From positions 186,001 through 228,890 of the forward strand of contig QPGO01000134.1 of the NCBI GenBank assembly GCA_008632985.1: a DNA stretch of 42,890 nt, read 5' to 3'. Shown here piece by piece: positions 16,046 to 40,907 of this stretch. This stretch comes from Psammoneis japonica (Eukaryota). The notes under the pieces are model-generated. The model searched no databases. It was not told the origin of the DNA and was given only the letters and a program-made list of their open reading frames with translations. A program made the translations under genes and the position numbers. Within the stretch, counting starts at the first letter, position 1; every line of letters begins with the position of its first letter.

Positions 16046-16147
16046 GGAGGGACGCGGAGCGTCCCTGGAGGGACATTTGTCCCGCGGAGCGGGGAGGGAC
16101 GCGCGAAGCGCGCCCCCGAGGGACAGGGTGTCCCTCGGGTCCCTCGC
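16046..16147. repeat. GC-rich cluster of nested short inverted repeats
   Basis: AGGGACGC-GGA-GCGTCCCT (16048-16066), GGGACA-TT-TGTCCC, CCCGC-GGA-GCGGG, CGCGC-GAA-GCGCG (16100-16112), CCCGAGGGACA-GGG-TGTCCCTCGGG (16115-16139). Confidence 0.9.
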
Positions 16148-16334
16148 AAATCGGCCGGAAATCGACGGGTGGAGCCGGCGACCAGACCGGTCACCCTACG
16201 ACGGACGACAGACGGTCCGACCACTGCACTACCGCCGCTCGCTCGTTGCTGCTGTCTACCGTTTTCATTGCCATTGTTGCGATTCGTTGCGATTGGACTT
16301 GTATGGCATGCGCTGTTGGCATCATTTGTCCATA

Positions 16335-17314
16335 ATGCCATCTCTCATCAATGAAAAAGATGCTCCAACTGCACAGGCCCAGGACGGGTTGGAACCACCA
16401 GCAACCACTGCAGCAGGCACAATCTTCTACTCGCATCACAGCAATCCATGCAAGAAGGACAAGTCCAGCGACGAGCCGAGCGACGAGGCAAAAGCGAGTG
16501 AGGTGGACCACATCAATCGACTTGCTACTGAGCTTGAGGCCTCCTTTTTGGAAGATTCAAATGAGGATGAGGCAGAAGAGCGCGAAGACGAATCCATGAT
16601 GCTCCAAGCATGCGCAGAAATGCAAGACAAAGCAGACCGAACCGAAGATGGCTACAAGACGGCGGTCGCAGCATTTAACGTTTTTGCCAAAAAAACAGGA
16701 TATCCACCAGTCCATCAGTTGGAACGAAAGCATCTACGTGGAGAGACTCTCACTGTGCCGAACTGCAGCAAATTGATGAGGCAATTCTGCACTTTCTTGA
16801 TGGAGCACAAGATTGAACGCGAAGGTGCTCGCAAGGGGACTCATTGGAAGCCCAAGTCGCAGGCACAATGTGATTCTGGTGTGTACATGGTGCTCAAGAA
16901 GAAGTTGGGGCATGGAGCACTTTACAAAAAATCCGAGCATGACGAACTCAACAAATCTCTAAAAGCAAGGGCCTGCGCACGCTGTTTACAAGTGAGGAGA
17001 AGGAGCATTTCAATGGCAGCAATCGTCCTCAAGCAAAGGATGATGACAACTACATGGCTTGGTGGGACAGGGCTTGCAAGATATTGAAATCCGTGTCTCT
17101 CAAGCACATTTTTAATTTGGTTGAGCAGCACAACAAAGCCGTGCCCTTGTGCAACAAGCTGGTTGATGAAAAGAAGGCAGCATCAACTCGCAGCTTCAAA
17201 GCCAGCACAAGTGAGGAGAGGAAGGTTATTGATGGAAAATCCAAATTGGAAAACAAAGTGGGAGCTGTTGTTTCGGTATTGGAAAAAACTGCAAACGATG
17301 ATGAACAAGATTGA
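16335..17314 (+). mobile_element. Probable defective tyrosine-recombinase (Crypton-like) element ORF, core-binding domain only
   Basis: An acidic N-terminus is followed by TEDGYKTAVAAFNVF...LMRQFCTFLME...KPKSQAQCDSGVYMVL, resembling the YR N-terminal SAM-like domain. No RHRY catalytic domain seen. A second ORF piece lies at 17054..17314, next to the hairpin cluster. Confidence 0.5.
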
Positions 17315-17799: not shown

Positions 17800-20150
17800 G
17801 AAAGTATCATTGAGATATCACGCCGTAAAGTGGGACACCGGCGGCTCGCATCATTGTGCTGCTGCAGTTTGCTGCGTGCAAATTGACTTGGTGAAATTTT
17901 GTGAGGGTTTCGTGTCCCTTGGAAATTGTGCGTGTTGTGTGCGATTGATTATGTGTCTGTGTATGGCACTTGTATGCGTGTCGTGTCCCTCAGGAATTGG
18001 GTGTACTGTCCCTCTGAGTCGGTCTAACACAGAAAATGCGCGAATGAATGAAAGGCAGGCAGGGGGGGGAAACAGTTGCGTTGGGCGGGTGGACAGGCGC
18101 CAACAACCCCATGCTGTTTGTCCGTCATTGCGCACACACGTGAATCTCTCCGAATGAATGAGTTCACTTCAAGTTCATCTTGGCACTCAGTGAGTGCTGT
18201 GCAACATGCCAGTTGAGTGCATGGCCCTTGTTTTGTGGTGTGGGCTCACCTGCAGACATGACTCGAAATCTTGGGTGTCAGCGCACATCACAAGACATTT
18301 TCCAGCATCTGCCAGTTGTTGTCAGCGCCGCGCATGTCAGCACATGCTCCCTCAAGACACAAGGGCCATGACAGACATGTCAAGCAGCAGAAGATGTCTT
18401 GCTGATGGCAGGGTGTGGCTGCAGTGTGTGACAGATTGTGTGAGTCAGCGAGCGTCCATCTTGTGTGGTGTGTGCAACGCGCCGTTGTCATGTGTGGCCA
18501 GCTCTTGCAGGGCCTGCTGCATGGCAGTCCGCCCAGCATTTGGTCTTCTCATGCTCTTGTTTGACAAGTGCCAAAACTGCCCTGTGGTGCACTGGTGGTC
18601 TGTGCATTTAGAGAATTGTCTTGTTTGTCAGCGAGCTGAGCAACAAGGCCCTGTTTTCTGTCCTGGGCACATTGCCACTTGGAAGACTGCACACAGCACC
18701 TCAAATGAGGACAGTTCTCTGCTGAACACTGACTGCGCTGGACTTGCATGTTGAGTGGCTGGCAGAAGCGTGTGCTGGGGTGGTTGGCCAGTTAGAGTGT
18801 CCAATGGCGGCAAAGTTAGTTTCCGTGTGGACGATGTACAGACGCAACGAAGGACAGCCGCTCCGATCCCATGCACCACTTGTCAGACACTGTTGTTTGT
18901 GCTCTGCTTTGATGTCATTTTGTGTCAATTTGTGGAGTGATTGTTGGGTGATCCACTCAGCAACTTTGTCATTTTTCACTGCTGGCACAGGCAGATTTTC
19001 TAAAATGTGGAGTGTGAAGAGGTGCAAATGCACTGCAGACTTGGCTGTTTGCTTGAGTGTTGAAGACAAATGTGTCTGTGTTGAGGATGGATTGACAAGC
19101 AAAGGTCATTTTTTGTGCTGAGAGCTCACATTTTTTTTGTTTTTGAGAAAAAGGGCACACCCCACACAAAGTGCGCAAGGTTTGCCAAAATGAAATTTTG
19201 ACAATGAGCAGAACTTTGTCTGTTCACAAGACATTGTGCACACAAAATGGCAACGACCATGTGCAATGTTCAGCTTGGTGCAAACACGTCTGTGGCGAGT
19301 CAAATGCCAGCCCTTGGCATTTCCTTGGAGATTGTGGCTTGCCAGCCACAAGCAGCAGTGCAATTTTGTAAAAAAGAGCAGATTGTTGAATGTGACAATT
19401 GCACACCAAATCTGACAATTGGAGCTTGAATGTTTGGACCCCACACTTGGAAAGGAGCCCCACCAGCAAGTCATGTTCTTGGTGTGGCAAAAATGTCTGA
19501 GCAATGCAGAGCCATGCATCTCAGTGGCAGAGCCAGCTGCAATTCTCACAAATGAGCACAAACCTCTTTTGTCCCATTGCACTGCAACCACATCCAAGTG
19601 ATTGCCTCAACATTTTGGTGGTTGACAGCAGAGTGCATCATCTTGCAGTTGGATGACCAGAGTGCTCCAGCTGAGTTTGGCAAAAAAAAGCTGACTTGTT
19701 GGCATGGCCCCAAAGTCTTGAGGTTCATGTGAAGTCTCTCAAGACCATGTCCAGCTTCTCAAGATTGTCTTTAAAGGATCCCTTTGTTGTGGCAAGCAAG
19801 TTGCTTGTATCCTGTTCAGGCTCCTGGGCAGAAGACAGGCTCTCAACAATGCTGTCGTCATGTGTTGGCTTCCAGGTCAAGATCACTTTGGGATCAAAAG
19901 AATCCCTTCACAAATGTCACCAAGGTGGTGAGACAAATGATGAAGAATGAAAGTGGAAACGGCACGCCGACGTTTGTTTGCCTTGGAGCTCGCAGCCGCC
20001 CAGTTTTTCCTCCCCTGCTCAAGATTCTTGCAGATTGCAACACACTGCACACACTGCCAAAAGTGCCATTTCATCACACGACCCTGTGCTGAGGTGTTTC
20101 TTACAACTGCTCGAAGCAACAGTCGGACGAGACTGGGATCGTCGTCAACT
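17800..20150. repeat. Degenerate TpA/CpG-depleted repeat relic, unclassified
   Basis: Almost no TA dinucleotides. The six-frame ORFs are Cys/His-rich and Tyr-poor, matching the composition of the repeats at 22.7-38 kb. Confidence 0.6.
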
Positions 20151-22361: not shown

Positions 22362-22664
22362 AAAAAGCCGATTTCGATACCTTTTGGCTACCGAGCAGGT
22401 GGGTAGAAGTACTTGTGTGACACTATTATACATTACTTCGAAATACATAAAACCAAACCAAAATAGCAATGGACTTTGGGAGTCGAACTTGCCGATTACA
22501 CGAACGTTTAAGACAGGTGCAGCCATTAGAGAATCGCTTGCTGACGTGGACTATGCACACAAATGGAAAACGAGTTTTATGTCTAGTAGATCCATGCAAA
22601 AGTGGAGATTCCAATTTTTGTACTCTTTTTAGCAGAGGAAAGCAAGAAGACATAAACAGTTAGA

Positions 22665-22990
22665 TTGCATGTTCTTTTAAAAAATCGTCAGCCGTGCCAT
22701 CTGGCGCTTGCATGCGACAATTGCAGGGGCCAAAACAAGAACAGAATGGTCACAAGGTCGATTCTGTGGCTTGTTGAGACAAAAAGATTCAAGAAAGTGC
22801 CTCTTGTGTGCCTTGCAGCTGGTCACTTGAAGAACCCTTGTGACGGGATGTTCAATCTGCTGATAAAGGACCACACAAACCTCAATCTTTTCACAGATGA
22901 TGGCCTCATTGGCACTTTGAATGGACACAAGGAGACCCTGGGAAGTTGTTTCAGTGGACGAAAAAAAGTCTGTTGAAACAGACTGTGGGT
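22665..22990 (+). mobile_element. DDE transposase fragment, Sola-like
   Basis: LALACDNCRGQNKN...LWLV...VCLAAGHLKNPCDGMF matches the DNCxGQNKN...xLxxGHTxNxxDxxF pattern. Confidence 0.7.
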
Positions 22991-24259
22991 TGGAACAGCA
23001 AGAAGGCACGTTGAAACTGACACCTTGTTGGTGCCGCTGTCACTCATTGCCCTGTGCACACACACTCATGTCAGTCAAACAGTGATTGAAAAACAATGCT
23101 GGGTGATGATGAAGCAGGCAGAGCAGCAAATGCATGGGAGAACAAACCATGTTCACATTGTGGCAAGATGAGGAGGGCTGCCTCCTTGTCATTGGGGTTG
23201 AAAAACAAAGGGAGAGAGGGGGCTCCATCTTGCCATCACCTCTCTGTCATTCAAACTGTGCAGAATTGGTTGATTTGGAAGACCACTCTTGGCATCTGTC
23301 AAGTGGACCCCTTTGCCATTTCAAACAACTGGAGATTGTTGGGTTAGATTGACACTTGTCAACGTGTCTTGCTTCCAGCAAACTTGGAATGAGACTGCAT
23401 TGTGCAAATTCCATGGCTCCAATGTTTTGTGATGCTTGTTTCCAAAACTCCAAGCACTGGTTGACTGCTTGTCAATGGACTCTCAACTGACCATGGGCTG
23501 AATGCTGCAGACCACAGCCAAGGCACAAGGCTTGGCATCATTTCTTTGTTGAGCTCCATGGAAGTCACAACTGGTTGCACTTTGTCAATCATGTGATCAG
23601 AGCTGGTTTTGTGCGAAGCAGCATCGGCACTGCAGCATTGTTGGGCACATTTTCACAGCCATGGATTCAACCCACTTCTTCAACCAGGTCGATTTCTTGA
23701 GTCAAATCTTTCTGCCAAGTCAGCGGCATGCAGGTGATTGACTTGTTGTCTTGCAACTCAATTGTCAGCCCCTGCTCCTCTGGAGTTTTTGGAATGACAG
23801 TGGTGGGGATCTCAATTCCAAGGATCTGTTCCAGCTTGCTTGGTTGCTGCAGTGCCATTGGATCATGTTTTCAGGTTTCTGTCCTGCGTCAACAATGCCA
23901 CCCAACAACTCACCACCCCCAGTCTCAAGGATGATTTCACATCATCGCCAACTTGCCTGTTTCATTTGAGTCAAGTCACAACATTTCATTTGAAGCAAAA
24001 AGAGCCAGGACTGTGCAGATTTAGACTGTGAGCAGTCTTTTCCATGGACAGCTGGTTGAAGTGTGTGGCCACTTTGACTGGAATGTCTGTTGTTGAATCA
24101 GAAATCTCAGAGCTGGTGCTGCCCATTGCACCGCCAACAGCAACTGCATCTTTGGCATCTGCAATGATGCACATTTCCAGCTTCAAGGCATGGCTTTTGT
24201 GAACAATCACTTCTGTTGTTTTGCCCTTTTTGGGTTCACAAACAATGATTTTGCCATCT

Positions 24260-24649
24260 GACGCGTTCCAGGTCTAGGTGGGACCTCGTACTACTGAACT
24301 GTGACATCGATAGTTTTTTGAATCACGTCGTATGTCGCGCACGTAGATTTCTACGTGATTTTTTTGACATTTTGTGTCATTTTACGGTACACTTACTGAG
24401 CGATCCGTCCAACAACTTTTGACATTTTTTGTTACAGCGCGATTCTATAATGTCTTAAGAATCGCGTAGGGCAGGTGCATTTGCAAAAACGTCGAGTGGT
24501 AAGAGGCATAATTGTACCACAAACTTGGCCGTTTATTTGATGTTGAAGATAAATATATCCATTAATTAAATTCTCGTAGTACGGAGCTCGCACGTAGAAT
24601 TCTACGGGCCCAATGTCACACGGAGTCCCACCTAGGGCTGGAACGCGTC
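24260..24649. mobile_element. MITE (390 bp), young copy with TSD ATCT
   Basis: TIR GACGCGTTCCAG..CTAGGTGGGAC at both ends. ATCT at 24256-24259 and 24650-24653. Non-coding, AT-rich interior. Confidence 0.93.
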
Positions 24650-26633
24650 ATCTTTCACTTTGACAAAATCAAAGGCGTGAAGCGGTTGTCTGCATTTGAG
24701 CATCACGCAGTTGGTTGCATCAACATCATTGTTGATGGAAGCAATTCCTGCAGCTGCCAAGCAACCCACCAGTCATGACAGACTGCTCACAATTTTTGCA
24801 CCTTGAGTCAATTGGGTTGTGCATTGACGCTGCTTTAAAAATGCAAACTTGCCTTTCCAGCCTTGAGAGCTCCTCAAGAAGCTCTTTGCCATTTGCCGTG
24901 TCAGTCAATGGGGCACAATGTGTGGTGCATTGCATTTCCCCTCCAACCCAATCAGATGAAACAGAGGGAAGAGCACAAGCAAAGAACGGAGCAACAACAC
25001 AAGTTAAACAGAGCAAAGCATGCAGTGGCAAACAACAAATGAGTTGCTCACACCCAAAACTCATGAGGTGCAACTCTGCACATTTCAACAGCAATCCACA
25101 AAGAGAAAAATGATGCCACAAGAGCTGGCATGTGACATGTTTGAGAGTCTCCTCTTGACCACAGCAATGACGCCACTTCAGGTTTGACAGATTGCAGTCA
25201 ACGCAAACAAGGCCAATGTTTTGGGTGGGCAGCAGGCAGCCACAAGGCTGAAAAAGGATGCAGCAGGCACTGCGTGAAAAAGCAAGAATGACATTTGTTT
25301 TTCCAAAGCCTCCCTTCCCATCCTTGGCCACTTTCCTTGGCTGTTGTTGCATCCTTCCATCTCCACCAGCCATGACACACAAGCGCTCAAAATGTGGGGC
25401 AGCCAGGACTCACAAATTGACAAAGCACTTTCTCCTTTTCTGGAGCATGCCAGAGCAGAAGACCAGTGCAAGTGATTCTGCTGCCTGGGTGACTGCAAGA
25501 GACTGCCCAACATGGTGTGCAAAAGAGGCAGCAAAAATCCTGGGCTGCTCCCCATGCATGGTCTGCAGCTGACAAAGGACCCAGCTTTTCTTTTCAGGCT
25601 TTGTCCTGGCTGTTTTCCTCTCATGCACAACTCCAACAATGGACAGCCACGTTGCTGCAGTCGGCCAATGTGGCTCAATTGGTGTTGCCTTGTTTGGCTG
25701 TGTTTTTGCACGACCACAAATTTGTTCCTCATTGTGGCTGTGGCAAACAAAAAATTGCCCAGACAAATCATTTGGTTCCCCTTCACCATGTGCAGGCAGA
25801 AATGGCACTTTCACCTCTGATGTCCAAAACATTTCTCCAGGCTCACGTGTTCTCACCTGGTGCAAACCACTCTACAAGATCCTTCAACTTTGAATCTCTG
25901 TCAAGCTTTTCATCTCAAGTCTGGCCACAGCCACTTGCATTGCTGCCATTGCTGGCCAGCATTTCCCTCCAGTGCTTTTGCAGAATTGAGCCTGGCTCTG
26001 AGTCGAGACACTGCACTGTTGAAGAAACAATTTGAGTTGTGCACTGGAACACTTGGATTTGTTTTGACCAGCCCCACTCTCAAAGTGCCCTGAAGTCTTG
26101 ACACATCATTTGTTGCTCCTGTCTGGCTTCTGCCAAACTGATCAGACATTGTGCTTTTGCCATGATCAAGGAATCATTGGCGCACTCACCCTCTTGAACA
26201 TTCAGCTGGTGTCTCTTGTTGCATTTTTGCAGCCAATGTGTCAACAGATCATTGGGGCCCATCTTGAGAAGACTGTTGTCTTCAAATGCATGGACATCTT
26301 CCTTGGCAACAAGGTCATGGACGGCTGCGCTGCAGCCAAGCAAAGAGTGCTGATGGCACCCCAGATGCCCAGTCTGGAGTGAAGGCATCACACCAGCGGG
26401 GTTCACAAAGTTGTCAGCAGGGCAGAGTGGATCCTCAACTTGAAGACATCAAAAACATTGGTGGGCACAGCAGCGCTGAGAGCACAACAGGCCCTGCAGG
26501 CCATGGAAATCTTGCCATGACTCTCATCAGCAAAACACAAGGGTCAGCTGATCAAAAATGCATGGGGCCTGGGTGGGTGGGCCAGAGCCATCATTTCATT
26601 GTCAATCTCCTGGCACACCAACTTGTGGCGGTG

Positions 26634-27071
26634 TGCAACACACAGCCACTGACAAGAGCCAATGCATCACGGCGACGTGTTGCAGCCTTTAAATGTCACA
26701 AAGGGCGTGACAAAATAACCTTTTGTCTGCATGCATGCTGCGTTGTGAATCCATGGCGGAGTGGTTCATCGTGTGACCATTAGGCAGGAGGCCAGGGGTT
26801 CGAAACCCTGAGTGGGAGTTGTCTGCAGCAACGTTGATCACTGTCGAACGCGTAAAACTCTGTGCAGTTCTGCATGTTCCTTCGCACGTGCCCACACTGT
26901 TCCGCCAAAACCGTGCAGTGTCAGCACACGTGAGCGTAGGTCGCGTGACACATGGGGAGGAGTGCAACACACAGCTGCTGATGAGAGCCAATGCATCACG
27001 GCGACGTGTTACAGCCTTTAAATGTCACAAAGGGCGTGACAAAATAACCTTTTGTCTGCATGCATGCTGCA
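26634..27071 (+). mobile_element. TRIM-like mini LTR retroelement (438 bp) with TSD GGTG
   Basis: 109-bp direct repeats at 26634-26742 and 26963-27071 (TG...CA). PPT GGGGAGGAG at 26954-26962. GGTG at 26630-26633 and 27072-27075. Interrupts a region that is continuous in copies A and B. Confidence 0.88.
26754..26807 (+). promoter_or_regulatory. tRNA-type Pol III internal promoter (A and B boxes) inside the TRIM
   Basis: A box TGGCGGAGTGG at 26754-26764; B box GGTTCGAAACC at 26797-26807 within the stem CAGGG...CCCTG. Confidence 0.7.
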
Positions 27072-30000
27072 GGTGCTTGAGAAATTTTGCCAACAACACC
27101 TCATCTTTGACAAAAATGACATGTGGCTCACACCAACAAGGCCAGTGCCACAAGAAATGCAACTTTTGAGTTCATCAACAGCACAGACCCTGTCCCTGCT
27201 TTCCTGCCTGCCCCTTGTTCTGGTGCGCAGGTGGTGGAAAAGATTTGAGCTGCACCCTTTGCGCTCCCAAATGTGAGAAAGCCAAGTGTGCCTCCAAACA
27301 CATGCTCTTGTCCCGCGACAGAATCAAGTGTCTCTCATTTGCTCAACACGCCATTGTGGCCAGGCCTCCATGAGCCAGCTGGACAAACAAACAGCTTGAC
27401 ATTGTTTTGCTGGCATTTTGCTGTCCTCACAATGGGCTGCAAGTTGGATGAGATGCACCCGGAGCTGCCACTCATGGTTGTGTGGTGGTTGTTTGCAACT
27501 TGATGTTCAAACATTGCAGACTCTTGTGTGCTCAACAAGCCATGACAGAGCTGCGCGCCTGTCTTGACCAACTGGAGTGGCGCCTGTCTCTTGAAATCTT
27601 GGGGTGAAGTTGGCTGTCAGCTGCCATGGCATTGATGAATGGATCCACAGAATTGTGGACAAGCTCCTTCTCAACCTTGTTGTTGGCAAGATCAAGAGAC
27701 ACAAGAGAACCCAAAACTGCTCCACTGCAATCTCAGACAAATCAACCTGACACTTTTGGCAATTGACAAAATCAGTGCTTGTGCCAACAGCCTGCACTTG
27801 CTCCAGTTCCAAGTCCACCGCAGCACATGTCACACCCCATGGAGTGCCGTCTTTTGCGCCAGAGATGCAAGATGTCTTCAATGACACCCGCATGGATCTT
27901 CAAAATCCAAGGAATCTTTCAAGATTTTGAGCACCTTTTCAGCACACAGCTCAGCAATCTTCCGTGCCATTGGGCTGCAACCAATCTTCGTGACAAACAG
28001 CCAGCTGCACTTCCCCCCTTCTGACTGGTGGGCGTGTCATCAGCAAAGGACTCTTGCCCAGTTCCAGAAGCTCTTTTTCTTCCTTGGTGCAAAGTGGCTG
28101 TTTGCCATGAGCTCATTGTGGTTGTTGCCCTTGGTTGATGCCAAGGCTGAAACATTGGCAGCAGGTGATTTTTTTTTGGTCAGTGTTGGTGGCTGAAGCA
28201 CCAGCAGTGGGCAAGTGGGTGTCAGCAGCTGCAGTGTTGGCAGCAGGTGAGTGGCGGGTGTCAGTCAAAAATTGAAAGGGGGTGTCAACAGCTCCAGCAG
28301 GTGGTGGTGATTGGAAGAAAGCAACAATTGACAGTGTGGGTTGCTTGGTCAATTTAGCCACCTTGTCATTCTTGAGGGTCAGTGTGCCAGCCACCACATT
28401 CAGTTTTGGCAGCTCAGTGGTTGGTGCCTTGGTGGTTGTCCTCTTGAAGTTGCTTGTGACAATGGCTGCTGCATTTGGCCTTGGAAGAGGGGATGAAAAG
28501 CATGGCCAGCAGCTTTTTATGGAGAGCAGCATTTGATGATGCAAAAGATTTTGCAGGCAAGCCCTGCTCAGCTCCTGTCTTGGCAAATGACTGGAAAAGC
28601 ATTGGCAACAAAAGAACAGTGCAGTGTGAACATGACAATGTGATTGAATGCTTGCCATGTCACAAATGACAGTGGTTGGTGTGCAAGAGCCAATGCCAAG
28701 CAAAGAGCTGTGCACCTCATGCTCATCTCTTGTCTCACTTGTGAAACAAACAAACAAACAAACAAACAACAGCAGAAATTCAGGGAAGATCTTGCATCAA
28801 TTCATTGCTCATCCAGAGAAAAAGCTGCGGCGGGTGTGACAAGAGGAGTCACTTGATGCCCAATGCACCTCATGTGCTGTTGGAGTTGACTGTTGTGTTC
28901 AAACAATTGGCGTGACAACAAGCCACATGCAAGAAGTGAGAGTCATGCTCAAAGCAGAAACAACACAAGCAGCAAAAAAACAAAGTGACTTGCTGCAACT
29001 CTTGCCAGTTTGGTGGATCTTTTTCCAGTCATCAACCCTGCCTGCTCAGTCACGGATGGTCTGGCAACATCACACTCATCTCATCACTCACAACCCACAA
29101 CATGGTGTCACCTTGTTGTTTGCATTGTGGTGGCAGAATGCACTGCAAAGCTCAAACAAACAAAGCAAGTGCAAAAATCAGCAACATCAGTGCATGAGCT
29201 GGACAGTGTTTGCCCCTCACAAGCAGGAGAAGCTCATGTTCCAGGGCATGAAGGACCCTGCTGCAGAGGTGTGCATTGAGGCAGTGCAACTTGAGGTGCT
29301 TTTGAAATGCCTGTGACTCACTGACACCTCGTCATCACCACAAAACATTGACCTGATGATGACAGCCCCAGATTGACAAGGCACAAGTTGCTCCAGGTCT
29401 CCTCTGCAGATCAGAAAGGCAACAAGAAAAGAGGACACTGCCTTGATGGAAAAACAGTCAAGTGCAGACAGTGTTTCAGCCAGAGCCGCATTCTTGGAGG
29501 ACAGACTTGGACCACCATCATTGGCTGTCTGCAAAAGAAAGACAGGTGCACTTGTCAGATGCACAAAATTTGTTCGTTGTCCTCGTGATTCATTTTGCAC
29601 ATTGCGCACTTGCCGCGCTCAAAAAACAAATGGTTTGACAGCAATGAAATGTCAGTCAAAGCAAGAAGCAGTGCATCTCAAAAAAAAAACAATTTGAAGT
29701 GCTGCTGCACCTTCACCCAGCAATGCTGGTGCCAGCTGACCCACACCTCCGGTGCACCCTGCAAGGAGTGCGGCAGAAGCGGGCTTGATTGGCCTGAATC
29801 GGCATCTCCCCTGAGGAGATGCCCGGCGGGAACAGCTGGTGCAGAGAGTGCAACAACACTTGGAGTTTGCTGTGGCATTGCTGGCAACATGCACACTGGT
29901 CATGCCATTGCCACAGAGGACAGTTGCAGCTGGGAAAAATTCACACGGGAGCCACAAAGGGAGCCAAAAGGAAGTCAAAGGAAGAGTGCCAAACCACTGG

Positions 30001-31169
30001 CTGTTGCTCATCAAGCAGTGAAACCTCACTCAAACCTCAAAGAAATGAAGCAATGGAAAGATTGCTGCATGCAGCAGAAAGCTTGATTTGCTGGCAAGCA
30101 AGGGGGAGTTTGTCCAGGGCTGGGTGACAAGAAATGGGAGTGCTTGATGATTCGACCAGTCCGTCATTGGGAAAAATGTTTTTCACGTGCAGAAACCATG
30201 CCTGATCTTGCGCAGAAATGCCGACACACACAGCAAATGGATGGCAGTCACTTGTTGCCAAAGGGAGGCTCATGCTCACACTCGTCAGCATCACAACAGA
30301 AGAAGCAATTTCGCCACAAGCAGTGAAGGACTTGGCTGGCCGATGGGAGCAAAGAAAGTCATTGGAGACAGAAGAGTGACGTGTTCCAGCCGCACGTGAC
30401 CCAAATCATGCACAAAAACAACATTTGCGCAATTTTTGCACGGTCTCTGACTTGCAAACGGTTTCTCACCACCAAAAGAATGGATTTGTTCAAATTTGAA
30501 TGTTTTGCAACACTGACAAGACTCGTGTGAGTGTTGCAACATCATTGTCATTGTGCTGTCTGTGTTTTTCATTGCGACAAACAAATCGCAACACAACAGA
30601 TGATTTTCAGCAAAATCATTGCCGTCATTTGGATGTCACCCAAACACATCTTTCTACGATGAGGCTTGGTGGGTTTTCTACCTGCAAAAAAGCTCAGCAC
30701 ACAATGCACTGACGCATGATCAGCGTTGAGTCTACAGAGAAAGTTCATGACACATGTCCCATGAGGACTTAACACCCCACAAAAAACTGTTCAAATGTTC
30801 ATGCTCTGGACTCCTGTAAAAGCCAATCCACTCAAGCATTTTGTGTGAAAATGCTCAACGCACTAAAAGATGCACAATTTACATTCAAAATCGATTGTCG
30901 TTTTGTGTGTCACCTGGGACTGGAACACATCAAGTGTGGGCACAAGAAGCTTAGAAACTTGACAAAACATTCATTGGTGGGGTTTGACGAAGCGCAAAGA
31001 ATTTGTGCTGAAATCCGTGCAGACAATTTCTTGGCTCTGCAGAAAATGACAAAAAGAATCAACACGCACATGACCCATGAGGAGTTGACGCCAATGCATG
31101 CACTCAATGTCAAAAAAAAAAGCACAAAAGTCCAAACGAATGTCATCCCACATTGTTGCTCCACACCCG

Positions 31170-34100
31170 TGGTCCATTTGTTGCTGAGCTGACAAAGGAT
31201 CCAGCCTTTCTTTTCAGGCTTTGCAATGACATTCTTCACCTCATGTGCTGCTCCGACAATGGACACGCCATTGCAGTCAGCCCACGTTGCTTGGTTGGTG
31301 TTGCCTCATCTGACTGTTTTTTTGCGCGCCCATGAATGGGTTCCTTGGTGTGGCCATGGCAAATGAAAACATTGCCCGGAAACACGATGCTGGGGCTGCT
31401 TGTCAGCAAATCATTTGGCTCCCCTTTGGCAGGTGCAGGTGGAAATGGCACTTTCACCTCTCAGGTCCAAAACATTCCTCCAGGCTTGCCATCCTCACCT
31501 GGCACAAATCGCTCTGCAAGATCCTTCAACTTTGTGTCTCTGTCAATCTTTTTGTCTGCAGTCTGGCCACTGCCATTTACATTGCCACAATTTTTGGCCA
31601 TTTCCTTCCAGTGTTTTTAGCAGAATTGCACCCAGCTCTGAGTTGCAGAAAACGTGGTGCTGAAGAAACAATTTGAGTCACAAGCTTGAACACTTGGAAT
31701 TGTCTTGACCAACCCTGCTCTCAAGAAGTGCAACCAGACACAGTGCCTTTGCCATGATCAAGGCATCATTCGTGCGCTTGCCCGCTTGAACTTCTGGCGG
31801 GTGTCTCTGGTTGCATTTTTGCATCCGACACGTCAACGGGTTGTTTGGGTCCATCTTGGGGAGATTGTTGTCCTTCAATGCGCAGATGTTTTCCTTGGTG
31901 ACATGGTCACGGAAGACTGCGCTGCAAGTGCAAGGGTGCTGATGGCATCCCAGATGCCCAGTCTGGAATGAAAGCATTGAGTTGATCGGGTTCACAAAGT
32001 CACTGGCAGGGCAGAGCTGATCCTTGTCTTGAAGACGTCAAAAAACATTGGTGAGCACAGCGGCACTGAGAGCACAACGGGCCCTGCAGGCCATGGGAAT
32101 CTTGCTGCGACTGTCGCCAGCAAAACACAAGGGTCAGTTGATCAAGAATGCGCAGGGCCTGGATGGATGGACCAGAGCCATCATTTCATTCTCAACCTCC
32201 CGGCACACCAATTTGTGGCCACGTTTGATGAACTTTGCCAACAACACCTTATCCTTGACACAAACAATGTGGTTTGCATCAACAACGCTGATGCCACAAA
32301 CATGGCTTTCGACCTTGTCAACAGCCAAATCCATTTCTACGTCCCCACCTGCCCGCTGTTCTGGTGAACAGGCGGCAGAAAAGATTTGATTCACACCCTT
32401 TGCATTCTCAAATGCAGGAAAGCCAAGTGTGTCACTGAACACATGCTCTTGTCCCATGACACAATTGGTTGTCTCAAGTTTGCTTGACACGCCATTGTGG
32501 CCAGGCTTCCACAAACCAATTGCATGAACAAACACCTTGGCATTGTTGGATTTGGCAAACCTTGCAAGAGGTTGTAAATCAGAAAAGATGCGTTCGGAGC
32601 TGCCACTCGCCATTGTGTGACAGTTGTTTGCAACTTGATGACCAAACATCACAAACTCTTGTGTGCTTGACAAGCCGCAGCAGAGCTGAACGCCTGTCTA
32701 GACCAACTGGAGCCTCTTGAAACCAAGGACGTCACCTCCACGATCGCGAATCTGCTGATGAAACAAATGTTGAAAAGGATGAAGAAGACTGTCTGTTGCC
32801 ATGGCCTTGATGAATGGATTCACCGCATTGCGGACAAGCTCCTTCTCAACCTCATCATCAATGAGATCAAGAGAAACAAGAACCCGAAACTGTTCCTCTG
32901 CAATCTCGGATGAATCAACCCAACACTTTCGGCGATTGACAAAATTGGTGCTCACACCAACACTCTTCACTTGCTCCAGTTCCAAATCCATTGTGGCATG
33001 CGTCCCACCCCATGCAGTGACTTTTTTGCAGACGCAAGACATTTTGAATGACATCCGTGTGGATCTTCAAACTCCCAGGCATTCTTCAAGATTTTGAATG
33101 CCTTTTCAGCATGAGGCTTGGCAATCTTCCGTGCCGTTGGGTTGCCACCAATCTTCATGACAAACAACCAATTGTGCTTCTCCTTCTGACTGTCAGACAT
33201 GTCGTCAGCAAAGGGCTCTTGTCCCTGCAGCTTCTTCTCCAGTTCCAAAAGCTCTTTTTCTTCCTTGGTGTAAAATGGCTGTTTGCCATCATGATCGTCA
33301 TCCTTGGTTGAGGTGAGCAAGTCGGCATCGGCAGCAACTAAAGAGTCAGCAACAGGCGAGTCGGCATTGGTGGCTGCAATGTTGGCAGCACCGGCAGGCG
33401 AGTCGGTGTCGGTGGCTGCGACGTTGGCACTGGGCATGTGTGCATCAACAGCTCTGGCAGGCGGCGGTGATTGGAAGAAAGAAGCAATGGGCAGTGTGGT
33501 TTGCTTGGTCAATTTGGCCACCTTGGAGCGCTTGACGGTTGGTGTTTCTGCAGCTTTTTGCTTCACTGGGAGCGCAATGGCAGGAGTCCTGATGGCAGTC
33601 CTGAACTTGCTTGTGACGCCAGCTGCTGCATTGGCAACGGGACTAAAAAAGGCACCAACAGTCCTTTGTCTTTTGTCCAGGGGCTTGCGCAGCTTGGGAG
33701 GCATGGTGATGTGACACATTTGGCTGCGGTGCGAATCCTTCTACATCACAAGAGAAAACGACATGACAAACAATGAGAATGACAAATGATTGGAAATGCA
33801 TGAGAGACAAAAGAACAACTCAGTGTGAATGACAACATGATTGAGCACTCACCGTGTCAAATGGCAACGATTGGTGTGTGGCCTCCAATGCCGAGCTGCA
33901 CGAAGAGCTTTGCATCTCGCACTTGTTTCCCGTCACTTGTGAGATGGCAAAACAAACAACAAGCAACAACCAATGTGAGACTCACATGTCAATGGCAGAA
34001 TGAGGAAATGTAACAAGGGAAAGAAGGAACACCACACCAAAAGCAAGTGCAACAACAAGAGCAGAGTGATGTCTCGTTTTGGTTTGTGTTTGATGAGCGA

Positions 34101-35225
34101 AGCGAAACGCGCCGAAAAAAAGCCACTCTGGATTGAACACATGCATTTTCTGGATGTGTCACACGCATCTTTCATCTCTCAGTTGTGAGAGTCAATTGTG
34201 AGTCGGAGGTGCGGAGACACTGTCTCTAGAGCAGAGAGGCGGGCGCACCTCTCTGTGGCACTGACACTGACACTCAATGCTTGCCAGCGAGCACAATCGA
34301 GCATTCATTAATTGCATTGACTGCTGTGGCTCTCCCACTCTCCACTGCAGCACCAGTGGCCAGGCTTTGGGCCCCAATGACAGAGAATCCAAAGCACAGT
34401 GAGACAAGCGTGGCAATCAAGAAATCAAAATGATGCCGAGAGAGAAAGCATCTTTCTTGACGCATTCCAGCCCCAGGTGGGAGCTCGCAGTGCTGACGTG
34501 TGACACAAATGAATTTTGTCATCCGTCGTGTGTTTCGCACGTAGATTTCTGCATGTGACATTTAAAAAAAATTGTCCAGACTCGCTGTTTTGTGAAGCCC
34601 CAGACGTTTTATGTGGCAAGTTCACAGAAACAACAATGTGCCAGTTGCATTCTTCAATGTCTGAAGAATGTAACTGGCCAAGTAAAAAATGATGTGCTTC
34701 AATCACAGGCGAGTTTGTGCGTTCGCAAAATTGCCTCATTTTCTGTTGGTGATCATTGACATTTTAATTGCCGCATGATTTTGCTGTGGAGCTCGCAGGC
34801 AGAAGTCTACGGGCCCAATGTCACACGGATTCCCACCTGCGTCTGGAACGCGTCTCTTGCAGATGGCAATCAACTTGCCAACAATGCAGAGACATCCATG
34901 ATTTGCAGCAGACGGGGACATCACTTGGTGTGAATGCTGTGCGTTCTGGTTGACGAACATGACTGTGCTTCGAATGAAATGAGTGATGGCTTCGTCTTGG
35001 GCCGGCACGCTGCGAGGTGCGTCTGCAGTTTCACATTGTCTCCCCTCCACATGTTGATTTCATCCAATCTGACAATGTTGATAAAAACAGAGTGGGCAGA
35101 GTGTGAGACAAGCAGCTGTTGAAATGACGATGGTGGCAGAAACTCATGAAACACGATGTGTCCAAAAAATCCTGCCTTCCTTGCTTGCTTCCCTTGGTTC
35201 TCTGTGTCCTTCCGCCATCCCCTGA
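31170..35225 (-). mobile_element. Large unclassified repeat, copy B (TpA-depleted)
   Basis: Colinear with 38300-42890 apart from deletions. ORF remnant MPPKLRKPLDKRQRTVGAFF starts at ~33704. Confidence 0.9.
34459..34854. mobile_element. MITE (396 bp), older relative of 24260-24649, with TSD TCTT
   Basis: Termini GACGCATTCCAGCCCCAGGTGGGA and TCCCACCTGCGTCTGGAACGCGTC. TCTT at 34455-34458 and 34855-34858. The empty site with a single TCTT is at 41611-41614. Confidence 0.93.
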
Positions 35226-35274
35226 CCACGTGCGCGTGCAGCACGCACAACGCACGCACAATGGGATGCATGCG

Positions 35275-36800
35275 TGTGGTGTTTCTGCAGCCTTTCGCTT
35301 CACTGGGAGCGCAATGGCAGGAGTCCTGGCAGCAGTCCTGAACTTGCTTGTGACGCCAGCTGCTGCATTGGCATTGGCAAGGGGACTGAAAAAGGCACCA
35401 ATGGTCCTTTGTCCTTCATCCAGGGGCTTGCGCAGCTTGGGAGGCATGGTGATGCGATGTGTTTGGCTGCGGTGCGAATCCGTCGGCATCGCCACAGCAA
35501 ACAACGGATTGTTAGAAATGAATCAGAAACAAACAAGAGTGCAGTGTGAACAATGGTGTGACCATGCACTCACCGTGCCAAATGACAGCAACAGGTGTGC
35601 TGCCACCAATGCCGAGTTGAGTGTAGCGCGCTCGTTGCATTTCAATGCGATCGTTTCCAACACGCTGAATGATGTCGACCCAACAACCAATCAGCACCAA
35701 ACAAAACAGTCAATGAGCAACACATTGTTCCACAAAGAGAAAATCATTGAATGGCAGTGTTGTCGATTCGACACTCACCTGGGGAAAATGTTGTTGGTGT
35801 GACACTGTCACGACGAGTCAATTGACGTTGGACGCACCTCGTGTGCCGATGGAGTCGTCGACTCTTGCGTTCAAACAATCGGCACGACGACAAACCAAAC
35901 ATGACAAGTGAGAATCACATTCAAAGTGTGAACCACACAAGACATTGACATGAATGGAGATGAATGCTTGCCTTTCAAAGAGCAGTCAAAAAACAAAGCC
36001 GCTCGATGCGACAGTTGCCTTCTTTTTGTCGATTCTGAGATTGATGACCGCGGAATTCCGGCGCGCCAATTTCGTGCCAGCATCAATCCCGCCTGATCAG
36101 TCACGGACAGTCTGTCCTCGCACTGCAGGTTTTTTGTCGGCATTCTCATCTTGTCACTCTTGAACTCGTCAAACACAACATGATGTTACATTGTTGTTTG
36201 CGCTGCACAAGATGGCCGAACGCGACAAACAAAGTGTGCAAAAAATCAGCAACGCCCGTGCATTAGCCGGACAGTGTCCAACTCTCTAAAACTCTGCCGC
36301 AGAAGCAGTGCATGAAGAGGCATGTTTTGAGGCAGTGGCCCTGCGTCTTGAGGTGGGTGCTTTTGAAGTTTCTGCAACTTGCTGACACTCGTCACCACAA
36401 AGTGTTGACCCATGACGACAACCCTGGATTGGCAAGGTGCGAGTCGTTTGGCGGCCTTTCTCTGCAGATCCGATGGCACAGAAAGACACAGAAATTAAGA
36501 CACCGCTCTGTCAGTGCCGTTCATCGACATTGTCACACAATGCAGCTTTTCTCATCATTCTTGGAGGACAGACTTGGGCTTGGACCATCATCAACCCGTG
36601 CAGAACTTCAGTCAGAGGGGCGTCATTGGAGGACATTCTTGGACAAGTGTCATTGATTGTCTGCAAAAGAAAGAAAGAGCACTTGTTAGATGCACAAAAT
36701 TTGTTCGTCGTCCTCGTGATTCATCACATGTTGCACAATGCATGCTCACCACATTCACACAAAAAACGGTTCGGCAAATGACAAAATGTCAATCAAAGCA
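35275..36800 (-). mobile_element. Large unclassified repeat, copy D (ORF 5' end plus upstream region)
   Basis: MPPKLRKPLDEGQRTIGAFF at ~35447, truncated after KRKAAETP. The upstream region matches 28600-29700 and 41770-41950. Confidence 0.85.
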
Positions 36801-36915
36801 GGCAGCACGTCTCAAAGCATGTCAGCACGCAAACAACAACATGCACACAAAATACAAACAAAGCAAATGGTGCAAGATGCCCATGACAAACAGCAGGATG
36901 TCCCCACTCCCAGCG

Positions 36916-37554
36916 CAAACTGTGCAGTGGTTCGCCGCATGAAATCACGAATGCGCGCGATTCCTGCCCCAAACCATCAAGTGGTTCGCGGCAAGCAAAA
37001 AACGAACTGACAGACGATGGGCAAAAGTGTAAAAGATGATGAGACATCTGCAACAACATTGCATCAGTCGACACAGCAACGTCTGTTTGACAATGTGTGT
37101 GCTTTGTTTTGGCGGTTTACTGTGTTCTTAAACTTCTCCATGCTGCTGCCGTCTTGTTCATCGTGAGCCTCATTTTTCTGGTTCAGTTTTGCACTCGACC
37201 CTCTGGCGCAAATTGCCACGCATGTTTCTACGCTCGTCCTCCCGAACCACCTCATGGTTCGCCAATTCTACGGGGCTCCCGGCACTTGTCCACGCAGCGA
37301 ACCGCTCAATGGTTTGATGTTTTTTTCTGGTGCTGCCCTGCGGTTTTTTCTGCGGGGTGAGAAAATCACCGCCAATGACCATGACGGTGATTTGACGGCG
37401 ACCGAGCTCCACACACGAGTGGCGGCTGACAACATGATGCATTGACAACAATGGCTTTTTGCCTCTGTTGAAAGGTTGCATCTGTGCAGGCACTCCTTTG
37501 TTGTGTCAGTTGCGAGTTTTATCCTGCGCAAGTTGCGAACCACTGAGTGGTTCG
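36916..37554. repeat. Five dispersed copies of the palindrome CGAACCA-N5-TGGTTCG
   Basis: 36916-36934, 36970-36988, 37243-37261, 37298-37316 and 37536-37554; deviations are transitions only. Confidence 0.85.
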
Positions 37555-38079
37555 ATTTTTTGCCCGAGTGGGGATGTCATGTGGCGTCGTTGCCTCACCG
37601 TTTTTCGAGCGTTTCGTTTGCGATGCATGCCGGCACTTCTGCTGCAAAATGCCAAACAGGAGATAAATCAACATTGCACAGAGAGAGCAGACAGCAGCTC
37701 AAAAAAATCATCACTGCACTTGCAACTTGCAAAGTGTGTCGCATCATGTGGATTCTGCCAAATGTGTGTCGAGTTCAGAATGAAGAACGCAATGAACGAA
37801 ATGAGCGCAATGAATGCAACAATGAATCGTGTCGAGACTCGTCCATGCACATGATGTTCATTTTGTGTTTGATGTGTTGAGGTTGCGTTGGCCAATTGAC
37901 CAAGGGAAAGCAAGGAAGGAAGGAGTTTCTTGGATCGCGCTCGCTCGCTCAAGTGGATTTTGAATCGCCAATGCACGAACCACGCACGTGCGATGGGATC
38001 GTGCGTGCACACAAAAATTTTAAAAGCACAACCGCCAAAAAATGATCGCAGCGAGTGCAATTGAAATTGTTTTTACGTG

Positions 38080-38222
38080 CTGTGCTCTCCAGCTCTCTAG
38101 AGTAGAGAGAACAGCCAGTCCACCAGAGGAATGCTGCTGTCTGCTTTTCTAAATTGTTTCTGCTGTGCTCCAGCTCTAGCAGAGAGAACAGCCAGTCTAG
38201 AGGAATGCTGCTGTCTGCTTTT
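38080..38222. repeat. Imperfect tandem duplication (~70-80 bp) at the truncated end of copy A
   Basis: CTCCAGCTCT...AGAGAGAACAGCCAGTC...AGAGGAATGCTGCTGTCTGCTTTT occurs twice. Confidence 0.8.
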
Positions 38223-40907
38223 CTTCGAGTGCAAGAGACTGCCCAATTTGCCGCAGTCCCAAAGAGCAAAAATCCCACATTGCTCCAAACCCATTGCCCA
38301 TTTGTTGCTGAACTGACAAAGCATCCAGCCTTTCTTTTCAGGCTTTGTCCTGATCGTCTTCCCCTCATGTGTGACTCCCACAACAGACACGTCATTGTGG
38401 TCAGCCGACGTTGCTTGGTTGGTGTTGCCTTGTCGGACTGTGTTCTTCGTACGCCCACGAATGGATTCTTTGGTGTGACCGTGGCAAACGAAAATGTCGC
38501 CGGGAAACACGACACTGGGACAGCTTGTCGGCAAATCATTTGGCTCCCCTTCATCAGGTGCCGGCAGATGTGGGACTTTCACCTCTCGTGTCCAAAACAT
38601 TTCTCCAGCCTTGCCGTCCTCGCCTGGTGCAAACCGTTCCATGAGATCCTTCAACTTTGAATCTCTGTCCAGCTTTTCGTCTTTAGTCTGCCCACTGGCA
38701 TTTACATTGCCACGATTGCCAGCCTCTCCCCTCCAGTGCTTTCGTAGAATTGGAGTGAGCTCCGAGTCAGAGACGACTTGGCATTGAAGTAAGGATTTGA
38801 ATCGAAAACTGGAACACTTGGAATTGTTTCGACCGACCCCGCTCTCAAGAAGCACCCTCAAGTCTTGACACATTTGTTGCTCCTCTCCAGCTTCTGCCAA
38901 ACTTGTGAGAGATCGTGCCTTTGCCATGATCAAGGAATCATTCGTGCGCTTGCCCTCTTGAACTTCTAGCGGGTATCTCTGGTTGCATTTTCGTATCCGA
39001 TGCGTCAACGGATCGTTCGGGTCCATCTTGGGGAGATTGTTGTCCTTCAATGCGCAGATATTTTCCTTGGTGACAAGGTCACGGAAGGCTGCACTGCAAG
39101 TAAAAGGGTGCTGATGGCATCCCAGACGCCCAGTCTGGAATGAAAGCATCGCGTTGATCGGGTTCATAAAGTCGTCGGCAGGGCAGAGCGGATCCTCGTC
39201 TCGAAGACGTCGAAAAACATTGGTGAGCGTAGCGGCACTAAGAGCACGACGGGCCCTGTGGGCCATGGGAATCTTGCTGCGACTGTCACTGGCAAAACAC
39301 AAGGGTCTGTTGATCAAGAATGCACAGGGCCTGGATGGATGGACCAGAACCATCATTTCATTGTCAACCTCCCGGCGCACCAACTTGTAGCCACGTTTGA
39401 TAAACTTCGCCAACAACACCTCATCCTTGACATAAATAATGTGGTTCGTATCAACAATGCCAATACCACAAATATGGCTTTCGACCTCGTCAATAGCCGA
39501 ATCCATTTCTACGTCCCCGCCTGCCCGCTGTTCTGGTGAATAGGCGGTAGAAAAGATTTGATCCGCACCCTTTGCGTTCTCAAATACAGGAAAGCCAAGT
39601 GTGTCACTAAACACGTGCTCTTGTCCAACGACACAATTGGTTGTCTCAAGTTTGCTTGACATGCCATTGTGGCCAGGCTTCCAAGATGCAATTACACGAA
39701 CAAACAGTTTGACATTGTTGGATTTGGTAAACTGCACAACGGGTTGTAAATCGGAAAAGATACGTTCGGAGCTGCCACTCGCCGTTGTGTAATAGTTGTT
39801 TGCAACTTGATGATCAAACATTATAAACTCTTGTGTGCTTGACAAGCCGTAGTAGAGCTGAACGCCTGTCTCGACCAACTGGAGCAGCATCTGCCTCTTG
39901 AAACCAAGGACGTCACCTCCACGATCGCGAATCTGCTGATGAAACAAACGTTGAAAAGGATGAAGTCGACTGTCCGTTGCCATGGCCTTGATGAATGGAT
40001 TCACCGCATTGCGGACAAGCTCCTTCTCAACATCATCATCAATGAGATCAAGAGAAACAAGAACCCGAAACTGTTCCTCTCTAATTTCGGATGAATCAAC
40101 CCAATACTTTCGGCGATTGACGAAATTGGTGCTCATACCAACACTCTTTACTTGCTCCAGTTCCAAATCCATTATAGCATACGTCCCACCCCATACAGTG
40201 ACTTTTTTTACAGACGCAAGACATTTTGAATGATATCCGTGTGGATCTTCAAACTCCCAGGCATTCTTCAAGATATTGAATGCCTTTTCAGCATAAGGCT
40301 TGGCAATCTTCCGTGCCGTTGGGTCGCCACTAATCTTCATGACGAATAGCCGATTGTACTTCTCCTTCTGACTATCGGACATGTCGTCAGTAAAGGGCTC
40401 TTGTCTCTGCAGCTTCTTCTCCAGTTCCAGAAGCTCTTTTTCTTCCTTGGTGTAAAATGGCTGTTTGCCATCATGATCGTCATCCTTGGTTGAGGTGAGC
40501 AAGTCGGCATCGGCAGTAACTGTAGAGTCGGTAGTAGGAGAGTCGGTAGTAGGAGAGTCGGTATTGGTGGCTGCAATGTTGGTAGTACCGGTAGGCGAGT
40601 CGGTGTCGGTGGCTGCGACGTCGGCACTGAGCGTGTGTGTGTCAACAGCTCTAGCGGGGGGTGGCGATTGGAAGAAAGAAGCAATTGGTAGAGTGGAGCT
40701 CTCAGTCAATTTGGCTACCTTGGAGCGCTTGACGGTTGGTGTTTCTGCAGCTTTTCGCTTCACTGGGAGCGTAATGGCAGGAGTCCTGGTAGTAGTCCTG
40801 AACTTGCTTGTGACGCCAGCTGCTGCATTGGCATTGGCAAGGGGACTAAAAAAGGTACCAATAGTCCTTTGTCCTTTATCCAGGGGCTTGCGCAGCTTGG
40901 GAGGCAT
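38097..40907 (-). CDS. 936-aa repeat-encoded protein of unknown family with an N-terminal PIP box; probably 3'-truncated
   Basis: Long uninterrupted ORF with three decayed paralogs in the window. QRTIGTFF motif and a Thr/Asp-rich linker with a 15-bp DSPTT duplication. Homology with copy C ends near 38290. Confidence 0.75.
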   Translation of the reverse strand: MPPKLRKPLDKGQRTIGTFFSPLANANAAAGVTSKFRTTTRTPAITLPVKRKAAETPTVKRSKVAKLTESSTLPIASFFQSPPPARAVDTHTLSADVAATDTDSPTGTTNIAATNTDSPTTDSPTTDSTVTADADLLTSTKDDDHDGKQPFYTKEEKELLELEKKLQRQEPFTDDMSDSQKEKYNRLFVMKISGDPTARKIAKPYAEKAFNILKNAWEFEDPHGYHSKCLASVKKVTVWGGTYAIMDLELEQVKSVGMSTNFVNRRKYWVDSSEIREEQFRVLVSLDLIDDDVEKELVRNAVNPFIKAMATDSRLHPFQRLFHQQIRDRGGDVLGFKRQMLLQLVETGVQLYYGLSSTQEFIMFDHQVANNYYTTASGSSERIFSDLQPVVQFTKSNNVKLFVRVIASWKPGHNGMSSKLETTNCVVGQEHVFSDTLGFPVFENAKGADQIFSTAYSPEQRAGGDVEMDSAIDEVESHICGIGIVDTNHIIYVKDEVLLAKFIKRGYKLVRREVDNEMMVLVHPSRPCAFLINRPLCFASDSRSKIPMAHRARRALSAATLTNVFRRLRDEDPLCPADDFMNPINAMLSFQTGRLGCHQHPFTCSAAFRDLVTKENICALKDNNLPKMDPNDPLTHRIRKCNQRYPLEVQEGKRTNDSLIMAKARSLTSLAEAGEEQQMCQDLRVLLESGVGRNNSKCSSFRFKSLLQCQVVSDSELTPILRKHWRGEAGNRGNVNASGQTKDEKLDRDSKLKDLMERFAPGEDGKAGEMFWTREVKVPHLPAPDEGEPNDLPTSCPSVVFPGDIFVCHGHTKESIRGRTKNTVRQGNTNQATSADHNDVSVVGVTHEGKTIRTKPEKKGWMLCQFSNKWAMGLEQCGIFALWDCGKLGSLLHSKKSRQQHSSRLAVLSARAGAQQKQFRKADSSIPLVDWLFSLL

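Follow-up and report, generated by a model that had tools for sequence, protein, structure and literature searches.

Nested miniature elements give a relative order to the loss of TpA dinucleotides in a block of Psammoneis japonica DNA

How does a short element that is rich in TpA and CpG come to lie in DNA from which TpA has almost disappeared? The question is raised by a stretch of 42,890 nucleotides (nt) from Psammoneis japonica (assembly GCA_008632985.1, contig QPGO01000134.1, positions 186,001 to 228,890), called the window below and numbered from its first letter. Two elements resembling MITEs (miniature transposable elements with inverted repeats), M1 and M2, lie there in a block of dead DNA in which former TA sites now read CA or TG, a state that we call converted. 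A preliminary description of the window took the two copies as a clock, one unmutated inside a fully converted host and the other converted, and proposed a mutator that acts cumulatively or episodically after insertion. We find it probable that a mutator rewrote the block, acting on DNA after its insertion, and that nested inserts preserve the relative order of these events.

M1 differs sharply from its surroundings, as had been described. It contains 29 TA (observed/expected ratio, o/e, 0.95) and 28 CG (o/e 1.52), against four TA (two in each 1-kb flank; o/e 0.03) and 19 CG (8 and 11) in the flanking DNA, and the comparison of TA against CA+TG between the element and its flanks gives a Fisher p of 3e-23. 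The 29 TA are distributed along the whole element without a mosaic pattern. The terminal inverted repeats (TIRs) begin with GACGCGTTCCAG and form arms of 31 nt that are 87% complementary, where the outermost base of each arm is part of the target-site duplication (TSD); the subterminal palindromes are CACGTAGAWTTCTACG. The host is a TA-free pseudogene fragment of PheRS-beta with in-frame stop codons upstream of its upstream piece. Its B3/4 domain profile is cut cleanly between positions 62 and 63 by the element, which proves the insertion of M1.

To place M1 among its relatives, we used Logan contigs from four runs, which were compared with positions 23800-35300; the letters of each family were taken from part of the variant sites. 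The bin holding most of M1 has a summed contig depth of ~160,000 as compared with ~35 for the single-copy flanks, a sum that should not be read as a copy number. In three low-yield runs, the small contigs that cover M1 differ from it at 0-5 positions, and among the variants listed there is one majority difference, at position 24579, where 98% of the depth has C and M1 has G. M1 is essentially the consensus of its family, and the homogeneity of this family indicates that it is young. Within the window we found no empty paralogous site for M1, and among the 15 of 60 contig joints listed none connects 24259 with 24650. One Logan contig of 577 nt, at single-copy depth, aligns with 24649-25144, in the right flank of M1, with 62 differences and 18 gaps. 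It seems to run on into the left flank without M1 and may represent an empty paralogous site, with a functional PheRS-beta gene or another pseudogene copy as its possible source.

M2 has termini of the M1 type around another interior, and its arms of 24 nt are 88% complementary. The earlier claim of a 4-bp TSD with an empty site was borne out: ATCT flanks M1, TCTT flanks M2, and a single TCTT without any element occurs in the unconverted paralogue C. In addition, two Logan contigs join 34454 directly to 34855, leaving out the 400 nt that contain M2. The motifs quoted previously are also present, namely CTAGGT, GTACTACT and TATAA in M1 and CCAGGT and GCAGTGCT in M2. With 7 TA (o/e 0.25) and 19 CG, M2 is largely converted, as had been claimed. 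The alignment of the two elements is limited to their ends, with 75.5% identity over 94 nt and 88% over 75 nt, and the interiors are essentially unalignable; a global alignment gives 242 identical positions out of 384. Judged by these alignments, M1 and M2 belong to different subfamilies with only their termini in common, and their direct comparison is therefore not that of one element at two ages. The description of the two as relatives is accordingly right for the termini only. Within the alignable termini, 10 of the 12 TA sites of M1 read CA or TG in M2 and two are kept, while 11 of 18 CG sites are kept; the 5' terminus of M2 itself shows one CG>CA and one TA>CA change.

M2 was also compared with its own subfamily. 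Nine of the 25 differences are listed, and all nine are in the converting direction: at eight sites G or C in M2 stands against A or T in the majority or a large share of the subfamily, and at the remaining one T in M2 stands against C at a CpG. Six of the nine sites are TpA in the family and one is CpG. At five of them 81-99% of the family depth is unlike M2, and at the other four the family letter has a share of 36-54%. M2 is thus converted relative to its own kin. The preliminary description had counted pre-existing consensus differences between subfamilies against its own proposal. The subfamilies do differ, yet at the listed sites the interior of M2 departs from its own family in the converting direction.

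The direction of the changes can be read from three paralogous copies of one gene, two of which, A and B, are hypermutated pseudogenes in tandem. Copy C, with an intact open reading frame (ORF), serves as the reference for the ancestral state, and the stretch covering most of it (38272-41615) has a normal TA content (o/e 0.53). It has no Pfam family, no atlas match and no homologue at E<=0.001. Copy B, the host of M2, aligns with C over 3254 positions at 88.2% identity. Of the 120 TA in C, 103 are converted in B (61 to CA and 42 to TG) and seven are kept; of the 168 CG, 73 read CA or TG and 81 are kept. Changes of T>C or A>G outside TpA number 69. The reverse direction is rare, with one of 12 TA in B facing CA in C. 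On the other side of M2, in its right flank, 35 of 42 TA are converted. Translated in the frame of C, B has four frameshifting indels and seven stops, and 13 of 14 Tyr codons have become His or Cys; the older and more decayed copy A has 23 frameshifting indels and six stops, and its Tyr codons now encode eight Cys, five His and one Phe.

A and B are both converted at 65 TA sites of C, and at 21 of these 65 sites each of the three copies has a state of its own, TA, CA or TG. A single step leads from TA to either of the other two, which holds for neither CA nor TG, and TA is therefore ancestral. On this comparison of copies, the polarity can be regarded as settled: TA is ancestral and the changes run from A:T to G:C, opposite to RIP (repeat-induced point mutation). 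A and B have the same product at 44 of the shared sites and opposite products at 21, an agreement above the independent expectation that hints at a local strand or context preference. As a separate observation, the depth of Logan contigs over copy B is ~3-10x that of single-copy DNA, which indicates further copies of this orphan gene in the genome.

Two more inserts extend the comparison. M3, the third of these elements, has related ends (GACGTGTTCCAG and GATGTGTTCCAG) and inverted arms of 27 nt that are 81% complementary; it is converted, with 7 TA (o/e 0.15) as against none in its left 1-kb flank, and its summed contig depth is ~16,700. E4, a high-copy insert of ~447 nt found in paralogue A only, is partly converted and contains 8 TA and 24 CG. 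Its ends are direct repeats of ~110-121 nt (26621-26741 and 26950-27070) with 92.6% identity, and it may be a short interspersed nuclear element (SINE) or a terminal-repeat miniature element. By eye, the core of E4 looks tRNA-like, with the T-loop-like motif GGTTCGAAACCC; ARAGORN found no tRNA in the whole window, and an Rfam search over 24200-27200 gave one sub-threshold match, which lies outside E4. Among the sites listed, E4 keeps TA at three where 55-84% of the family depth has TG or CA, and several dinucleotides of its family are split between CA and TG. These kept sites and splits indicate that the copies were converted independently after insertion.

All four inserts have kept more TA than the DNA around them. 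The fraction TA/(TA+CA+TG) in the insert and in its 2-kb flanks is 0.38 and 0.009 for M1 (p 3e-23), 0.075 and 0.002 for E4 (p 1e-5), 0.054 and 0.007 for M3 (p 0.002), and 0.082 and 0.018 for M2 (p 0.005). CG is significantly above the flanks in M1 and E4 only. The following order is supported: duplication of B and C, insertion of M2, and conversion of B and M2 together; as a separate event, M1 entered its pseudogene host once that had been converted. Because the loss of TpA saturates, the inserts provide a relative order, or stratigraphy, and no calibrated clock. The clock proposed earlier therefore holds for the order of events given by nested inserts. As a graded measure of time it does not, with TpA loss saturating and M2 converted nearly as far as its flanks. 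The features are collected in Table 1.

Table 1. Coordinates of the elements, their insertion sites, the paralogous copies and the converted block within the window.
Feature	Position	Strand	Description	Basis
M1	24260-24649		Unconverted MITE-like element, 390 nt	TIRs, TSD, dinucleotide counts
M1 TSD	24256-24259 (left), 24650-24653 (right)		ATCT	
M1 host, downstream piece	23989-24258	-	TA-free pseudogene fragment, B3/4 domain (PheRS-beta), profile positions 63-147	Pfam B3_4, E 2.1e-12
M1 host, upstream piece	24650-24772	-	B3/4 profile positions 27-62, stops exactly at the insertion	Pfam B3_4, E 7.9e-11
M2	34459-34854		Largely converted MITE-like element, 396 nt, M1-type termini, other interior	TIRs, TSD, alignments
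M2 TSD	34455-34458, 34855-34858		TCTT	
M2 empty site	41611-41614		Single TCTT, no element, in unconverted paralogue C	
M3	30378-30931		Third element, related termini, converted	TSD GAGT/AAGT
E4	26630-27076		High-copy insert, ~447 nt, paralogue A only, partly converted	Paralogue alignment
Paralogue A	25491-28771	-	Older, more decayed converted copy, host of E4	Alignment to C
Paralogue B	31145-34458	-	Converted pseudogene copy of C, host of M2	B/C alignment
Paralogue C	38097-40907	-	Intact 936-aa ORF, reference for ancestral state	ORF, TA content
Converted block	~22680-38000		Dead repeat and pseudogene DNA	TA o/e
Transposase-like fragment	22656-22976	+	Left edge of block	Pfam DUF7869, E 8.3e-11

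In the explanation that we favour, a mutator would make A:T to G:C changes on either strand, by which TpA becomes CpA or TpG, beside a slower decay of CpG to TpG or CpA. M2 would have entered copy B after the B/C duplication and before most of the conversion of B, to be converted together with it, and M3 and E4 would have shared this fate, keeping slightly more TA than their flanks. M1, a member of a very abundant family, would have entered a converted pseudogene and would not yet have been hit. The mutator would act on any DNA residing in a marked domain, after insertion and over a long period or in repeated bouts, and not as a one-off event; the enzyme could be an adenine deaminase acting on DNA, as proposed for Bigelowiella natans. 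A timescale can be given for illustration only, with a rate of ~1e-5 per TpA per generation borrowed from B. natans. At this rate, the 29 intact TpA would place an upper bound of ~10^4 generations on the residence of M1, and a loss of 94% would be reached within a few 10^5 generations, much more quickly than the non-context divergence of ~6% between B and C. More doubtful is the wider idea of a genome defence, still active in diatoms and Rhizaria alike, that would erase TpA from marked domains bout by bout. If it were true, nested and dated MITE families could provide a genome-wide stratigraphy of mutator bouts, and the most abundant MITE family would be intact either through a burst later than the last bout or through having evolved to evade the mutator.

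Several observations weigh against this explanation. M1 and M2 being of different subfamilies, the site-by-site ancestry of the M2 interior extends to nine of its 25 differences. The flanks of M2 are ~93-94% converted (7 of 120 and 3 of 42 TA kept) and its termini 83%; the two of 12 TA kept in the termini are not significantly above the 10 of 162 kept in the flanks, so that the insertion of M2 could precede all conversion. The whole-element fractions of TA given above presuppose a comparable starting composition of insert and flank. Along B, the conversions to CA and TG show no significant clustering by strand, with 44 runs where 50.7 are expected (p 0.10), and the same test for the CG conversions was not significant either (p 0.12). 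Discrete processive bouts gain no support from this test: of the mutator acting cumulatively or episodically after insertion, the action after insertion is supported by the order of events, and the division into bouts is conjectural. The equation of M1 with its family consensus draws on the listed variants and on the low difference counts of the contigs, and no copy of these elements was retrieved from public collections. Finally, run X1, which supplies the contigs that match the converted DNA (see below), is possibly from the same sample as the assembly of the window.

An alternative that we consider unlikely is that M1 is not young but spared. Short hairpin MITEs, or the M1 family in particular, would then go unrecognised by the mutator, and M2, M3 and E4 would have been converted by spread from the long repeats flanking them. 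An extremely abundant family that is apparently homogeneous and TA-rich is what such an exemption could produce, and RIP in Neurospora has a minimum length threshold. However, M2, M3 and E4 are of similar size and lie in the same kind of flank, yet they are converted, and a spread from the flanks would have reached M1 as well if it had been present at that time. The near-identity of M1 to the majority of its family fits a recent insertion.

It is also rather improbable that M2 inherited its CA and TG from an already converted master copy, in which case it would carry no information on events after insertion. Non-autonomous elements require only their termini to move, so a converted interior could be propagated, and the intermediate family shares at four of the nine listed sites show a polymorphic subfamily in which converted copies are common. 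On the other hand, at the five sites with 81-99% of the family depth unlike M2 its states are those of a minority, the 5' terminus itself carries converting changes at a CG and a TA, and both flanks are converted to the same degree as the termini of M2, for which conversion together in place is the simplest account.

An artefact is very unlikely, whether in the form of modification-dependent miscalls that read TA and CG as CA or TG, or of M1 having been polished to its family consensus. A symmetric modified site could indeed be called differently on its two strands, as CA and as TG, and no sequencing platform is recorded for either the assembly or run X1. Nevertheless, run X1 supplies seven single-copy Logan contigs, 520-1326 nt long and at a depth of 30-40, that show 0 differences from the TA-free sequence within 24623-32377 of the block, which makes an assembly or base-calling error unlikely; A and B are truly decayed, as the frameshifting indels (four in B and 23 in A) and transversions demonstrate; and M1 has at 24579 the letter of ~2% of the family depth and was therefore not overwritten by the family consensus, just as M2, M3 and E4 have locus-specific states despite their high copy number. 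The earlier argument against a regional sequencing artefact thus gains support from both the contigs and the minority letter. We regard it as no less improbable that M1 is an older, converted copy refreshed by ectopic gene conversion from an intact family member. Its very high copy number would offer many donors, but both target duplications and the exact ends of the element are intact, the even spread of its TA along the whole element leaves no mosaic, and no refreshment of this kind is seen in M2, M3 and E4, themselves high-copy. The reverse polarity, in which a RIP-like C-to-T change at CpA made the TA copies from original TA-free DNA, is practically untenable: pairwise differences between CA/TG and TA alone can be read either way, but the 21 three-state sites demand a TA ancestor, C combines its intact 936-aa ORF with a TA o/e like that of the window genes (0.53 and 0.55) while the TA-free copies are broken, and the B3/4 domain that persists in TA-free DNA does so with stop codons.

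Returning to the reading of a mutator that acts after insertion, the extent of its action can be seen in the composition of the window. The converted block has 88 TA in 15 kb (o/e 0.09), 51 of them in the four inserts, with a CA+TG o/e of ~1.7. It contains the DUF7869 fragment, the PheRS-beta fragment and the decayed copies A and B of gene C. The neighbouring genes have been spared, since TA o/e is 0.55 in the genes of positions 1-17,000 (a short-chain dehydrogenase, a fucosidase, ankyrin proteins, FtsH and a sulfotransferase) and likewise normal in the stretch of C. Over the whole block CG o/e is 0.48, with a gradation between 0.1 and 0.98. The losses of TA and CG do not go together: at 35-38 kb CG is close to normal (o/e 0.76-0.98) in DNA almost devoid of TA (o/e 0.05-0.11), and at 23-30 kb CG (o/e 0.09-0.42) is low along with TA. 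This lack of coupling suggests two processes of different tempo, of which the loss of CG may be the slower, ordinary decay of methylated CpG (5-methylcytosine, 5mC). That the ratio of TA to CG loss is not fixed gives a weak hint of TA loss in bouts. A second, separate converted block appears at 18000-20000 between apparently normal genes (TA o/e 0.06-0.11, CG o/e 0.21-0.45).

As to their class, the elements are ordinary MITEs: they are short (390-554 nt for M1-M3), without coding capacity and present in many copies, with TIRs in M1, M2 and M3, target duplications, and an empty site for M2. Allowing up to two mismatches, we counted 11 occurrences of the 12-mer terminus in the window, as compared with 2.85 expected; none of 100 shuffles reached 11, and six of the 11 occurrences are the ends of M1, M2 and M3. 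The target duplications (ATCT, TCTT and GAGT/AAGT) are of 4 bp and other than TTAA. Such duplications fit Sola, to which the preliminary description had looked, but also Ginger and Academ, and are not exclusive to Sola. With the MITEs of these superfamilies the present elements share TIRs of ~25 nt, very high copy numbers and subfamilies that have only the termini in common; they differ in that the window holds no autonomous partner or transposase with matching ends. No autonomous element with GACGCGTTCCAG termini was found in the window, and the motif search of the window placed no such terminus near the transposase-like fragment at the left edge of the block, the one that the preliminary description had named as Sola-type. 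The sole Pfam match of this fragment is DUF7869, whose clusters are eukaryote-only. No longer relatives of the fragment were found, and the literature search returned no paper containing GQNKN or DUF7869; passages of a 2017 study give Pfam as being without a Sola model at that time.

Searches for further copies gave little. A transition-blind purine/pyrimidine search detected no further hidden old copies in the window; it scored the M1-M2 pair at 173 bits against noise of 60-77 bits, besides one pair at 112-129 bits that is likely low-complexity. The 31 metagenome loci retrieved with a degenerate 18-mer were all matches by chance, having at most 19-23 nt in common with M1 or M2 by BLAST, and a 26-mer search gave 0 matches in viral_contigs and 0 in genome_contigs.

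The process at this locus can be compared with two known mutators. The first is described in a preprint on Bigelowiella natans (Mettrop et al., bioRxiv 10.64898/2026.01.13.699255), where integrated DNA of nucleocytoplasmic large DNA viruses (NCLDV) and virophages undergoes A:T>G:C hypermutation at TpA only. Its mutation-accumulation lines acquired 231 mutations in two integrated viral regions, of which 230 were A>G or T>C, every one of these 230 at TpA; hypermutation occurred in 11 of 15 lines and is described as ongoing and not constitutive, with 211 mutations on ~6,169 TpA over 3,132 generations (10.64898/2026.01.13.699255). As a long-term signature, TpA-poor clusters rich in CpA+TpG were enriched in transposon domains (10.64898/2026.01.13.699255). 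By comparison, both systems change A:T to G:C at TpA on both strands, giving TpG and CpA, and both are confined to foreign or repeat-like regions. They differ in that TA o/e is 0.03-0.1 here, near saturation, in contrast to a rho of 0.45 in the NCLDV region of B. natans, that duplicated host-gene fragments are targeted here besides transposons, and that CpG decay accompanies the loss of TpA here and is not reported there. A restriction to TpA is not seen at our locus, where the 73 of 168 CG sites of C reading CA or TG in B changed as well.

The lineage is also another one, B. natans being a chlorarachniophyte. The closest-in-length named relatives of the neighbouring fucosidase are from pennate diatoms (Bacillariaceae sp., Seminavis, Nitzschia and Mayamaea; 53-56% identity), in a list of relatives that is topped by score by longer animal proteins. 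A full-text literature search, evaluated at the level of titles, found no description of TpA-directed DNA hypermutation in diatoms; so far such hypermutation has been shown in one 2026 preprint, in a chlorarachniophyte.

The second system, RIP of Neurospora and other ascomycetes, changes C to T and makes TpA from CpA in duplicated DNA. Like the process considered here, RIP is a context-specific transition hypermutation that inactivates repeats and duplicated genes, can spread to neighbouring DNA and leaves a dinucleotide signature. Unlike RIP, which creates TpA, the process at this locus destroys it by changes from A:T to G:C, and one of three paralogues, C, has been spared. The very high-copy M1 family is untouched, which indicates that copy number alone is not the trigger, again unlike in RIP.

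Beside these two systems, the locus presents a process that destroys duplicated genes as well as transposons, acts on DNA after its arrival in a domain, can be separated from the decay of CpG and has, at least so far, left a very abundant MITE family untouched. Inserts nested in this way offer a cheap means of ordering, and with a measured rate also of dating, the activity of a mutator genome-wide. The finding does not itself amount to a new type of system; its use is as a footnote on chronology to a kind of mutator that is rare and has been described only recently.

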